A stretch of DNA of 64,000 bases from Candidatus Heimdallarchaeota archaeon (GCA_019058275.1 JAHLVW010000016.1:1-64000), one strand, 5' to 3'. Numbered from the stretch's first letter, positions 13,953 to 18,184 are shown. Numbers and translations are program-made. The notes: generated from the sequence alone by a model not told the origin.

Positions 13953-16040
13953 CTATCCTATTCCACCGCCTCCTCCTCCTCCACCACCGCCACCGAAACC
14001 TCCACCAAAACCACTGATACCACCACTAGAAGATGGAGGAGTAAATCCCTCACTCATATTTGAGATGGCAGTTGTTAGTCCTTCAGCCATATTAGAGATA
14101 GCTTTTGGCAAACTTTCAGCCATATTACTGATTCCACTAACAACAGATTCAAAACCCCTACCCATGCTGTCGAAGCCAGTAATTGTTCTATGTCTTGGTC
14201 CACCAGCAGATGGAATGTAGATACGGGGATAGTAATACCAATAGGGAGTTATGAAGTGGTAATCATCTCGAGGTGGTTGTTTAGATACCCTTCGAGAAAT
14301 ATGTTTGAGATGGTTTGGTAAATCGAAGTTTGGTGCTACCAATAAATAAGAGAAATGATCCATTGAATAGTTAAACTGATCATATGGATCTGGGAATCCT
14401 AGCATTTGTCCTCTTATCAATTGTAAATAGCTTTCCCAACTGGCTTTCATTTCCGCACCATGTTTAGTTAGTTTTGGCATTCTCCTTGAAAGTAATAATC
14501 CAATAAAACTAGCAACTACAACACCAATAATACCAGTTAGTAAATTACTGATAAACAATAGTGACGAAGCAAAAAATAGAATAACTGATCCACCGATACC
14601 TGTAAAGATTGCAGCACCGAAATAGAATCCTCTGATTTTTTCTGGATCTGATTCAAAATATTTAGTATCGCCACCAGCCAATCTATTATAAACATCTGTT
14701 TTATGTGTCCATAAAGAGCGAATATTTGTTTTGATAGTAGATAGTGATGTTACTTCAACGGGAATTTCCTTTGACTTTTTAGTCTCATCTTTAAACCAGA
14801 TTGTTTCATAGGAATTCTTTTCTATAAACTTTAAGATACCTCGATCGAATTTTGATAGACTGCCATAATATTCATCCTTTTCTGTTCTTTGGAAGAAAAT
14901 TTCATCACTATCTGTTGTTTGTATTAATTTGAGGTATCCTGTTTCTGCCAAATAGAATATCTCTGCAATAAAATCTATCTTATCAAATTTCTCATCCAGT
15001 AATGTTCCAACTTCTGCTGGTGTAAGATCATTCGGTGGTCCTACTTCACTAACAACACGCATCCCATCACCACATTGAGGACAGTATTTTATTTTTCGCA
15101 AGTCTCTAAAACCACATTGGAAGCATTTTTTCATTGCAACTTCATTTAATGTTGGAATTACTTTTGCTTTGGGATCTATCCCTTTTACAAGAAAAGCAAT
15201 GATAAAGAACAGAAATATTGGAACAAATCCAATAGCTATTACTAATATCCAATTTGTATTTAGATATACCCTCCAAGAGAAAGGCATATCAATTCCTGCT
15301 GGTGGTGAATCTGTATCAATAGTATAGCTTGAGTAAGGAGCGACTACGCTTTGATGATAAGTTACTATTGTATGACCAGTTACATTTGCTACAGATCCAG
15401 CATCGTTACCTTGTGATTGTCCCTCATAATAAGTTGTTGAATTAATATCACTTAAAGAGTATTCTTTTGGAAAAATCACAGTAGTATCAATATCATATAT
15501 TGAGACTTCAAATTCACCACCAATGACATTCCAGTAAACCCTATCTCGATTCCCACGGAGATCCATTGCTGAAGATACATTGTAAGTTAGAATAAAAATG
15601 TATTCTGTATTTGATGGTACAGATGTTCTTAACCATTCCCACTTAAAGTGGATTACTCCAGCTTCCCTTTCCATATCATAGTAATTTATTGAAGGAGTAC
15701 CAGCTCCAGAGCTAATACTCCATGAATTAATGTCGTGAAAACTACGCCATTTTAAATCTCGAAAAACAAATCCATAGGAACCAGCGTCTAACCTAAAGGT
15801 CATTTCCTCAACAATTAATAGTGAACCATCCATTCCAATGGTTATATTTTGATTCCAATCTGAATAAATATAACCATTAGTATCCAAACCGCCACCACTA
15901 ATGGGTGATTGTATTTTTGCTACAACATCTCTAGTAACTAAAAAAGCAATACTCATATTGAGTGAAATGACTATTAAGAGTAAAACAATTGATTTAATTT
16001 GTCTGTTTTTTATTTTCAAATTATTAGAATCCTCCAGCAA
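13953..16040 (-). CDS. DUF2207 (YciQ-like) membrane protein with an inserted zinc ribbon
   Basis: DGSLLIVEEMTF, YWNVIG, PPNDLTPAEVGTL, Gly-rich C-terminus; CFQCG...CPQCG insert. Confidence 0.85.
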   Translation of the reverse strand: MLEDSNNLKIKNRQIKSIVLLLIVISLNMSIAFLVTRDVVAKIQSPISGGGLDTNGYIYSDWNQNITIGMDGSLLIVEEMTFRLDAGSYGFVFRDLKWRSFHDINSWSISSGAGTPSINYYDMEREAGVIHFKWEWLRTSVPSNTEYIFILTYNVSSAMDLRGNRDRVYWNVIGGEFEVSIYDIDTTVIFPKEYSLSDINSTTYYEGQSQGNDAGSVANVTGHTIVTYHQSVVAPYSSYTIDTDSPPAGIDMPFSWRVYLNTNWILVIAIGFVPIFLFFIIAFLVKGIDPKAKVIPTLNEVAMKKCFQCGFRDLRKIKYCPQCGDGMRVVSEVGPPNDLTPAEVGTLLDEKFDKIDFIAEIFYLAETGYLKLIQTTDSDEIFFQRTEKDEYYGSLSKFDRGILKFIEKNSYETIWFKDETKKSKEIPVEVTSLSTIKTNIRSLWTHKTDVYNRLAGGDTKYFESDPEKIRGFYFGAAIFTGIGGSVILFFASSLLFISNLLTGIIGVVVASFIGLLLSRRMPKLTKHGAEMKASWESYLQLIRGQMLGFPDPYDQFNYSMDHFSYLLVAPNFDLPNHLKHISRRVSKQPPRDDYHFITPYWYYYPRIYIPSAGGPRHRTITGFDSMGRGFESVVSGISNMAESLPKAISNMAEGLTTAISNMSEGFTPPSSSGGISGFGGGFGGGGGGGGGGGIG

Positions 16041-16205
16041 ATAACTGGCAGAATATTGATTTTTTTTCTTTTATGGGTAGTCTATAGAGAATTGTAATTT
16101 TCATTATTAAAAAAATTACCTTTCAGAAAAGAGAATGAGTAAAATAAAATTACTTTTTCAGTCCAAGCTATGCTTCAAGATGTAATATTGCCTTAAGACA
16201 TATGT

Positions 16206-16213
16206 TTTATAAA
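16206..16213 (+). promoter_or_regulatory. TATA box for the structured RNA/dnaG transcript
   Basis: TTTATAAA centred ~26 nt upstream of the first base-paired segment (16236). Confidence 0.5.
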
Positions 16214-16235
16214 ACAGAAATACACTAATAATACA

Positions 16236-16710
16236 ATCAGTGAAAGACAAAGGTTTAAAAACTTCGATGAAAGAAAACTGATAACGAAAAATTAACAATA
16301 ATATAAACAGATAAACGATAAAAAGATTGAAAAGAAAAATTCACAACATTGCTCTAACCAAAAATGTAGAGAGCAATTTCATCAATAATTAGGATTACTG
16401 GATTATTATTAATAATCACTCAAGATAATTTCAATTATTTAGGAGAATTAATGAGTAAAAATGGAAGAAGATTTCCATTTTTAAAATCAAAAAGCGGTAG
16501 TTTAAAAATACTACAAGAAGAGATAAAGAACATTCAGGAAATGTTCTATTACTCTAGTAAAGAATAGATGAATTGTAGATTCTTTTTAATCTTCTAGTAC
16601 ACAAAAGAAAAGTGTAAATAAAATTCGAAAAAAAAGGAATGTCTAGTTTAATTAAATGGAAAATTTCCTAAGTTTTCGATTGTTTGTTCTATTTTATTGT
16701 TAATCACTGA
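16236..16710 (+). ncRNA. Candidate large structured RNA or dnaG leader
   Basis: Nested long-range stems: 16237-42/16705-10, 16291-301/16694-704, 16310-19/16679-88, 16323-36/16580-93; at least 6 internal hairpins; G-U pairs favour the + strand. Confidence 0.65.
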
Positions 16711-16738
16711 ATCAAACCTATGGAGGTTAGATATACAG

Positions 16739-18184
16739 ATGAAAGAAAATAACGTTAACATAAATCATGATGATAAAGAATCAACTACTACCAAATATAT
16801 GATCTATGCTGATTTTAACATAGATGGTTTAGTTGAGAAGCCAGATGTAGTTGGTGCTTTATTTGGACAAACAGAAGGATTGTTGTCCGAAGAGCTAGAA
16901 CTACGTGAGTTACAGAAAGGTGGCAAAGTAGGCAGAATTCAAGTTTACTTATCGGTTAGGGGTGGCAAGACAAAAGGTAGTATTAGCATTCCATCAAGTT
17001 TAGATAAGGTTGAAACTTCAATTTTAGCAGCAGCTATCGAAACTGTAGATCGTATTGGCCCTTGTAATGCTAAAATTAGTATTAGAAGAATTGAAGATAT
17101 AAGAAAAGAGAAAATGAAGAAGATTCGAGAACGAGCTTCTGAATTATTACAAAAATGGAATACCGAAGCATCTCAAGAATCTAGTCATCTCACAGATGAG
17201 GTTCTAAAAGCTGCAAGAATTGGAGGAATAACCCATTTTGGTCAATTACCGGCTGGACCAGAATTAAATGATTCAGATACAATAATTATTGTAGAAGGAA
17301 GAGCTGATATCGCAGCTTGCCTTCGCGCAGGTGTAAGAAATACAGTTGCTGTTCAAGGAGCATCTGTTCCAAAATCAGTTATTAATCTTACAAAAAGGAA
17401 AACTGTAATAGCTTTCTTGGATGGTGATCGAGGAGGGGATTTAATCCTCAAAGAATTGCTAATGTATGCAGATATTGACTACATTGCACGAGCACCTAAA
17501 GGTAAAGAAGTTGAAGAACTAAAACCAGATGAAATAATTGATCAACTTAGCAAAAAAGTTCCAATTGAAATAGCAAGTTTTGTGTCAGAAATTCATGCAA
17601 GTGAAATTGTTCAAAAGGCTATAAAAAGAAAGGCAGCTAAAAAGATACCAATTGCAAAAGCGCCATATTCTAAAGAAAGAGTCGAGAGACAACCAATCAA
17701 GAAGGAAGCTGAGAAAGCAAGAGCTCCTCCCCCTCCTAGAGGAAGTCCTAGAAAGACTCAACCTGCACCTAAAGATTATAGAACAGATTCAAGACAAACT
17801 ACAAGACGTGCACCTCCTAGAGATAGTAGAAGGAGATATCCACAAAGGGATAGAAGACCCTCATATAGAGATTCTCGTCCTAGAACATTTAAACCAAAAA
17901 TACCCGAAGAGTTAATGCCAATAGTAAAAGAAATCGACAATAAAGAAAAACAAGAAGGTATATTTCTTAACGAAAAATTGAAGAAAGTAAAGAGAGTACC
18001 AGTCGAAGCAATATACGATGAAATTAAGAAATCAAAAGGCGTAACCAAAGTGGTCTTCGATGGAGTTATAACTCAAAGACTAATTGATGCTTGCAACGAA
18101 AAGAAGATTGATGTTATAATTGGTGCAAGAATGGCAGATGTAGAAAAACGTCCTGCAAATCTTAAAGTATTTACTTTTGCTTAA
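16739..18184 (+). CDS. dnaG: Archaeal DnaG (TOPRIM; exosome-associated)
   Basis: GLVEKPDVVGALFGQTEGLL, IIIVEGRAD, FLDGDRGG, FDGVITQRL; GGAGG at 16722, ATG at 16739. Confidence 0.95.
   Translation: MKENNVNINHDDKESTTTKYMIYADFNIDGLVEKPDVVGALFGQTEGLLSEELELRELQKGGKVGRIQVYLSVRGGKTKGSISIPSSLDKVETSILAAAIETVDRIGPCNAKISIRRIEDIRKEKMKKIRERASELLQKWNTEASQESSHLTDEVLKAARIGGITHFGQLPAGPELNDSDTIIIVEGRADIAACLRAGVRNTVAVQGASVPKSVINLTKRKTVIAFLDGDRGGDLILKELLMYADIDYIARAPKGKEVEELKPDEIIDQLSKKVPIEIASFVSEIHASEIVQKAIKRKAAKKIPIAKAPYSKERVERQPIKKEAEKARAPPPPRGSPRKTQPAPKDYRTDSRQTTRRAPPRDSRRRYPQRDRRPSYRDSRPRTFKPKIPEELMPIVKEIDNKEKQEGIFLNEKLKKVKRVPVEAIYDEIKKSKGVTKVVFDGVITQRLIDACNEKKIDVIIGARMADVEKRPANLKVFTFA

Follow-up and report, generated by a model that had tools for sequence, protein, structure and literature searches.

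What is contained in the 698-nt gap (positions 16041–16738) that lies between two divergent genes, one for a DUF2207 membrane protein (13953–16040, minus strand, named from Pfam) and the other for DnaG (16739–18184, plus strand, ATG at 16739 and stop at 18184, a Toprim protein of 481 aa matching Pfam Toprim_4/Toprim), in the 64,000-nt stretch of Candidatus Heimdallarchaeota DNA analysed here and called the window below? The assembly behind the window comprises 4.12 Mb in 118 contigs, and its DnaG is 78–79% identical to that of the nearest named relatives, which are 'Candidatus Heimdallarchaeota archaeon' MAGs. A preliminary description of the sequence had placed a large multi-branched RNA at 16236–16710. 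We find that a conserved, previously undescribed structured RNA element does lie upstream of dnaG, with conservation among relatives, a common architecture, a single copy and strict linkage to dnaG, and we give a probability of about 0.6 to its being a lineage-specific, highly structured 5′ untranslated leader of the dnaG mRNA, ~455 nt in length.

The helices named in the preliminary description are all present in the sequence at their coordinates and are reproduced in the minimum free energy (MFE) structure of 16236–16710. On the plus strand this segment folds at −105.1 kcal/mol (RNAfold) versus −68.5 ± 4.9 kcal/mol for 100 dinucleotide shuffles, none of which was as stable (z = −7.48), and the claim of a fold exceeding that of shuffled sequence is thereby upheld; the minus strand reaches −93.7 kcal/mol (z = −5.45). 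For comparison, 460-nt segments of 72 further gaps without ORFs in this genome had a mean z of −0.67 (sd 1.49, minimum −5.09), making the dnaG gap the most extreme among the 73. When only the leader predicted to begin near 16281 is folded, the MFE is −104.6 kcal/mol and z is −7.9, and the orthologous leaders described below give plus-strand z-values of −3.4 to −7.9, every one of them better than their shuffles.

Folding alone does not settle the strand. It had been proposed that the wobble pairs work on the plus strand only, and this is true of the window, but the orthologs are inconsistent, the minus strand folding or pairing equally well or better in some of them, and neither wobble pairing nor fold stability was therefore used to assign the strand. 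Base content is more consistent: the plus strand contains 44.5% A and 31% U in the window leader, with 42–45% A and 27–33% U across lineages, and an A over U skew this strong was found in only 1.6% of 128 ORF-free gaps. The plus strand is favoured because of this conserved excess of A together with the orientation of the BRE/TATA block and the context provided by the Shine-Dalgarno (SD) sequence and dnaG.

We located dnaG in eight of the ten other genomes of the genus (g1), where its orthologs are 67–72% identical, and seven of these eight share the divergent DUF2207–dnaG arrangement with a gap of 640–770 nt; in the eighth (G002) dnaG is partial at a contig end and the element is again found upstream of it. 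A pattern scan of metagenomes yielded 72 matches, six of them with dnaG, from which three further distinct sequences were gained; the element is thus also present on three metagenome contigs with dnaG, one of which represents a new lineage. The comparison set amounts to 12 distinct orthologous sequences from seven lineages, eight of which were used in the gap alignment. A sequence-only covariance model of the segment from P2 to the box (R1; both features are described below) was searched against 83 genomes of the class and gave a single strong match per genome in 10 of the 11 genomes of the genus, that of the window (G000) counted, and no strong match in the 72 class genomes outside the genus. 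In all nine genomes in which dnaG was located the R1 match lies 340–410 nt upstream of the dnaG match, and in the tenth R1-positive genome (G004) the locus is cut by a contig end.

Within the gap alignment the conserved blocks are ACAAAGGTTTAAAAA (16246–16261), ACGAAAAAT (16284–16292), ATTGTTA (16696–16702) and the SD sequence, in addition to both arms of a 14-bp helix (16323–16336 / 16580–16593) and a hairpin followed by a C/A-rich box (16348–16402). Each of the eight orthologs, folded alone from its predicted start to the AUG, adopts a common frame consisting of a closing helix (P1), an internal helix (P2) and a hairpin (Ha), along with a second domain and a small hairpin at the SD, both described below. 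The expectation that related dnaG upstream regions would hold a conserved structure was therefore borne out, with the P1/P2/hairpin frame and P1 complementarity both kept. The AATTCA/TGAATT helix proposed earlier fared less well, being present in the window but not kept in the orthologs.

The 5′ strand of P1 (16291–16314, plus strand), which takes in the helices at 16291–16301 and 16310–16319 of the preliminary description, pairs with the 3′ strand (16680–16704, plus strand) through 23 bp in the MFE structure, so that nucleotides ~8–40 of the RNA are paired with a stretch of ~30 nt ahead of the SD region. An equivalent duplex of 19–32 bp was found in every lineage with a differing sequence: most lineages have the core UAACA/UGUUA, two have UGACA/UGUCA instead, and the inner parts are unrelated in sequence. 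The cognate duplexes of the seven lineages sum to −140.7 kcal/mol; the 5040 possible re-pairings of strands between lineages average −89.1 kcal/mol (sd 10.8), and the true pairing is the single best of them. The two strands of P1 co-evolve.

P2 is formed by AAGAUUGAAAAGAA (16323–16336, plus strand), a sequence-conserved 5′ strand, and UUCUUUUUAAUCUU (16580–16593, plus strand), a 3′ strand containing a U5 tract that is invariant across lineages. In orthologs it takes the form AGAUCRAAAAGAA with UUCUUUUUGAUCU and closes a domain of ~245 nt that starts with Ha and the box. Formal column-wise covariation across the seven lineages was countable for P2 only: on alignment A2 its 13 pairs are paired in 95% of cells, with three pairs compensatory and seven invariant, and judged from these columns the conservation of P2 is mainly at the level of sequence. 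Hairpin Ha (16348–16377, plus strand), with an 8-bp stem and an A-rich loop, stands directly 5′ of the box and is found in every lineage with differing stem sequences, although an alignment-based search, in which the alignment is ambiguous here, gave no consensus pair for it. The C/A-rich box itself (16378–16402, plus strand) reads UUCAUCA..UUAGGAUUAC in the window and UCACGAUUAC in most orthologs, and is conserved in the alignment. Its 5′ half can pair with GAUGAA at 16567–16572 on the same plus strand (P3). A UCAUCA/UGAUGA duplex of this kind is found in six of the seven lineages, its two strands being sequence-conserved to the extent that the permutation test is uninformative.

The interior of the fold is far more variable. 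Between 16390 and 16555 (plus strand) the MFE structure contains five to six hairpins, including one of 11 bp (16456–16483) and one of 15 bp (16519–16555), and this inner domain roughly keeps its length but not its sequence between lineages. The region for which a single hairpin at 16384–16439 had been drawn is indeed folded, but as three small hairpins in the MFE structure. Among five close relatives, two of the 48 predicted pairs of P1, P2 and Ha vary, neither of them in P2, and about half of the changes in the inner stems keep pairing while about half break pairs; selection may be acting on the inner hairpins, for which these changes provide weak support. A second domain (16598–16679, plus strand), flanked by the P2 and P1 3′ strands, consists in the MFE structure of a hairpin at 16598–16616 and a branched hairpin at 16625–16679, and its counterpart in orthologs spans 90–110 nt.

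The 5′ boundary is indicated by a probable promoter. The most conserved part of the gap is a BRE/TATA-like block on the plus strand, ACAAAGG followed by TTTAAAAA (16246–16261), which is invariant or has one mismatch in all 12 distinct orthologous sequences. An A-rich BRE beside the TATA box is given as general for archaeal promoters (PMC5316973). The tRNA genes of the same genome share a recurring upstream motif, CGAAAG-n-TTTAAAA, which the block fits, and the matches to RNase P and SRP RNA both start 27 nt after TTTAT/TTTAAA. With the same spacing from the start of the TATA element, transcription would most likely begin near 16281, which would give the dnaG mRNA a 5′ leader of ~458 nt (16281–16738, plus strand). 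This moves the 5′ boundary of the RNA from 16236, where it had first been set, to ~16281. The outermost helix (16237–16242/16705–16710) would consequently fall outside the RNA, since the likely TATA box is located downstream of its 5′ arm, and although this helix is present in the window it is not preserved in orthologs; it is no longer regarded as part of the element. Some 45 nt further upstream, at 16186–16214, there is another conserved element, TTGCC..N10-14..TTTTATAA(AA). Its TATA-like part (16205–16213) is kept in six of the eight sequences, and the element could be an alternative promoter, with an earlier start near 16233, or a regulator site. At the other end of the gap, the genus-conserved TTACCTTTC block of the eight-gap alignment (16095–16125, minus strand) is the probable BRE/TATA promoter of the divergent DUF2207 gene.

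At the 3′ end the SD sequence GGAGG occupies 16722–16726, and in the MFE structure a local plus-strand hairpin (16707–16738), formed by AUCAAACCU / AGGUUAGAU plus CUG/CAG, takes in the second half of the SD and everything that follows it as far as the last base ahead of the AUG. Averaged over the SD, the unpaired probability is 0.42 in the window and 0.03–0.60 in orthologs, a value set by the local hairpin, and AACCU is found upstream of the SD in four lineages. In the thermodynamic model, leaving out the upstream 400 nt does not alter the SD unpaired probability. Since SD accessibility is unaffected by the upstream fold, masking of the SD by the large fold is unlikely in this genus, no translational switch being apparent, and control of SD exposure by long-range structure was ruled out within that model.

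A number of known identities were considered for the element. No family of Rfam 15 gave a gathering-score match anywhere in the window; at E ≤ 10 the segment 15950–16800 gave only three chance-level matches (E 2.8–5.9, 14–20 bits), and nine related dnaG loci gave nothing at E ≤ 1. The families covered by this test include riboswitches, OLE, GOLLD, ROOL and rne5. RNase P RNA (RF00373) and SRP RNA (RF01857), which the preliminary description had discounted for want of their motifs, likewise have no match here and were found on other contigs, the former at G000:C22:3491–3829 (136.3 bits) and the latter as a full-length match at G000:C74:6866–7172 (94.9 bits). A MITE or other repeat was rejected: the region is the sole full-length match in the 4.12-Mb assembly (the runner-up in BLAST spans 55 nt with 79% identity), and all relatives carry the element at the same syntenic position. 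The description of the RNA as a new one therefore holds, both with respect to Rfam and with respect to MITEs.

Archaeal pre-rRNA processing stems and BHB introns are also built on long-range inverted repeats around several hundred nucleotides, as is the case here. BHB introns have a 3-nt bulge, 4 bp and a 3-nt bulge, whereas inspection of the P1 duplexes of eight orthologs showed no bulge larger than 1 nt and internal loops that are symmetric or nearly so; no P1 duplex has the BHB motif, the locus bears no sign of excision or circularisation, and an intron or rRNA-type processing stem was rejected. C/D box sRNAs have conserved C (RUGAUGA) and D (CUGA) boxes that a terminal stem brings together, with guides of 10–12 nt. 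A UGAUGA-like motif precedes the P2 3′ strand in five to six lineages and is Watson-Crick complementary to the UCAUCA box. A C/D box test by eye found no conserved partner CUGA in the gap alignment.

The main argument for a leader transcribed together with dnaG comes from the spacing at the 3′ end. Only 17 nt, with no T-run among them, separate the end of P1 from the SD, so any RNA containing both P1 strands would have to run into dnaG, and there is no room downstream of the fold for a separate dnaG promoter. Co-transcription with dnaG, as originally suggested, is thus supported. Such a leader probably sets DnaG output in cis. Transcription would start near 16281 from a promoter of tRNA grade at 16246–16261, and the transcript would pass through two folded domains into dnaG, its 5′ end pairing through P1 with a stretch of ~25 nt right before the ribosome-binding site. 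The likely means of control would be mRNA stability, premature termination at the U5 tract that all lineages keep in P2, or both, with the local hairpin that half-buries the SD acting alongside, and the P2 helix and the box would be candidate protein-binding sites.

Oligo-U tracts are termination signals in archaea. Runs of at least five T occur once or twice per leader, in the P2 3′ strand (where the run is invariant) and, in six of the eight sequences, in the P1 3′ strand. If the U5 tracts act as such signals, premature termination yielding an RNA of ~310 nt becomes a live possibility, one in which the leader and a discrete non-coding RNA (ncRNA) would merge.

As to the effector, DnaG binds A-rich RNA on the Csl4-exosome (PMC3672285, PMC4227792). 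The leader is A-rich, and the genome contains exosome core genes, namely a pair of neighbouring Rrp41/Rrp42-type RNase PH genes, which makes feedback by DnaG or the DnaG-exosome on A-rich RNA attractive, if speculative.

Such feedback would have a parallel in bacteria, in long leaders that are controlled by the very enzymes encoded behind them: the rne 5′ UTR by RNase E and the pnp leader by PNPase. The E. coli rne 5′ UTR (RF00040) is, as here, a long, single-copy, multi-hairpin leader in cis before the gene for a subunit of an RNA-decay machine. It differs in that the rne and pnp leaders have no sequence or structure match here (no Rfam match) and the present context is that of an archaeal promoter and SD; there is also a 25-bp helix closing the 5′ to the 3′ end here, which the rne leader does not have, and feedback would be hypothetical in the present case. 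In archaea, L7Ae binds a K-turn in its own 5′ UTR and the leader of the L1 operon mRNA is known in Methanococcus. These are 5′ UTR structures for self-control by an RNA-binding protein, as hypothesised for dnaG, but the L7Ae and L1 sites are tens of nucleotides long and mimic an rRNA or sRNA motif, whereas the dnaG leader is ~455 nt long and no conserved K-turn or, in the alignment as inspected, C/D motif was apparent.

A rather unlikely alternative is that the element is a discrete, abundant, trans-acting ncRNA made from the strong promoter, possibly an RNP scaffold or a partner of the DnaG-exosome, with dnaG expressed only by read-through or processing; it would extend over ~305–310 nt, from ~16281 to the U5 tract at 16584–16588, or over ~420 nt to the end of P1. 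The promoter resembles those of stable RNAs (tRNA, RNase P and SRP), the terminal stem recalls the architecture of stable ncRNAs, transcription by archaeal RNA polymerase could end at the invariant, U-rich 3′ strand of P2, and the invariant sequence of P2 may indicate a protein-binding site; a consensus-strength promoter and invariant U5 tracts fit this explanation and the leader equally well. However, P1 needs an RNA reaching 16704, 17 nt from the SD, so that some transcripts at least enter dnaG, the element is found always and only upstream of dnaG, its range at the sequence level is one genus, which is unusual for a core RNP RNA, and its inner domains evolve fast. Also doubtful, and slightly more so, is the more specific proposal that the promoter-proximal ~310 nt, or the ~420-nt fold closed by P1, would constitute a discrete, abundant Asgard ncRNA transcribed from a promoter of stable-RNA grade, with dnaG expressed solely through regulated read-through or processing, and serving as physical partner, decoy or substrate of the DnaG-exosome. 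If true, an ncRNA would couple RNA-decay capacity to DnaG synthesis; we know of no description of archaeal attenuation of this read-through kind or of an exosome-associated ncRNA.

Much less probable is an element acting at the level of DNA, such as an origin of replication built on inverted ORB-like repeats, a cruciform, or a group of transcription-factor operators serving both the DUF2207 gene and dnaG. The inverted repeats do fold on both strands, G+C content is low (27.7% in the 1-kb segment 16001–17000), the P2 arms are conserved in sequence in the manner of protein-binding sites, and dnaG is annotated as a primase. Binding repeats would keep their sequence, whereas the P1 arms change sequence yet stay complementary, and the conserved A over U strand asymmetry and the G-U pairs in the window helices also speak against this explanation. 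Archaeal origins have ORB or mini-ORB repeats of conserved sequence on either side of an AT-rich unwinding element, and orc1/cdc6 is usually their neighbour. An origin was rejected in view of the variable P1 repeats and of the position of the Orc1/Cdc6 genes, since genes with a Cdc6_C domain lie on other contigs (C42, C69 and C117) and not on C2.

It is highly improbable that the gap encodes a small protein, with the structure being incidental. A 38-codon ORF (16451–16567, plus strand) does have an SD-like AGGAG 5 nt upstream, but no other lineage contains a counterpart, the aligned sequences having stops or no start and no small ORF being conserved, and P1 and P2 would be left unexplained; we judged the ORF non-coding. 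Equally improbable is functionless chance folding, for although AT-rich sequence forms many weak A-U helices and blocks shared by close relatives in slowly diverging intergenic DNA are possibly conserved by descent, a z of −7.5 against a minimum of −5.1 in 72 gaps and the maintenance of P1 pairing despite near-complete sequence turnover argue against it.

The leader interpretation may also be viewed against the dnaG genes of other groups. In the sister genus g4 (family f3; loci L021–L033, e.g., L030:1330–1503), dnaG is preceded by a leader of ~140–170 nt with one long hairpin. The basal helix is 94.9% paired, with four compensatory pairs and numerous G-U pairs in both directions, which excludes the minus strand. 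The 3′ strand of this helix, GUUUCACC, is complementary to the SD region GGUGAAAC over 8 bp, a match that is fully kept and includes one C-G to U-A covariation. Two alternative partners exist for GUUUCACC, the 5′ strand GUGAAAC and the SD region GGAGGUGAAAC, an anti-SD/anti-anti-SD arrangement that may work as a switch. A covariance model of this leader (R2) gave one match per genome in 18 of the 22 g4 genomes, each match abutting dnaG where the coordinates of dnaG are known, and no match in other families, g1 included.

The g4 leader is like that of g1 in belonging to the same gene, in its position and in having a helix that joins the 5′ end to the stretch before the SD, and its GCAUAU-CAUCAUUAUUAC box resembles the box of g1, best in L013. 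It differs in being a single hairpin of ~140–170 nt and not a fold of ~455 nt, and homology of the two is unsupported, as R1 and R2 each miss the leader of the other genus. A box-like motif (a stem and AUCAYSAUUAYUAC) occurs upstream of dnaG in several families; at loci L017–L020, L025 and L035–L038 a stem followed by a C/A-rich box resembling TCACGATCAC / TCATCATTAC lies 90–215 nt upstream of the gene, and family f2 has a conserved GTCTGA...TCAGAC hairpin further upstream. Leader-based control of dnaG looks recurrent in the class, as far as these upstream sequences indicate. A class-wide RNA family is unsupported by R1 and R2, and what remains is a recurrent theme and the box-like motif.

To our knowledge, archaeal mRNAs only rarely carry long structured 5′ leaders. 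Here an RNA element supported by comparative genomics precedes the gene for the exosome-associated DnaG, and two genera of the class with different structured dnaG leaders would point to a real need to tune the dosage of this protein. The P1 helix, P2 with its U5 tract and the SD hairpin provide testable parts for the study of archaeal mRNA stability, termination and feedback, and the element is a candidate for a new Rfam RNA family.

Beyond the class, diverse archaea (L042–L121) frequently have a long ORF-free gap before dnaG: by a crude measure its median is 225 nt and its upper quartile 466 nt, and some Thor-, Hod- and Methanosarcina genomes have gaps of >700 nt. In Methanocaldococcus sp. 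28A (L090:2213–2463) the 250-nt stretch that precedes dnaG has a folding z of −10.3, and the only Rfam matches are two tRNAs located upstream of this stretch, at 1978–2160.

Some minor observations concern the flanking genes and the rest of the genome. Four other ORF-free gaps of the same genome also have low z-values, G000:C22:136817–137342 (−5.1), C77:22309–23217 (−4.2), C84:54491–55379 (−4.2) and C84:38820–39431 (−4.0), and possibly contain further structured RNAs or repeats. DnaG of this genus has a long, low-complexity insert rich in Arg, Pro and Lys between the Toprim core and the C-terminal domain (residues ~330–405, window positions 17730–17960), near which the DnaG match in other families splits into two blocks. 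The C-terminus of the DUF2207 protein (13953–14030) ends in a run of ~20 glycines that follows repeated 'ISNMAEGL'-like units.
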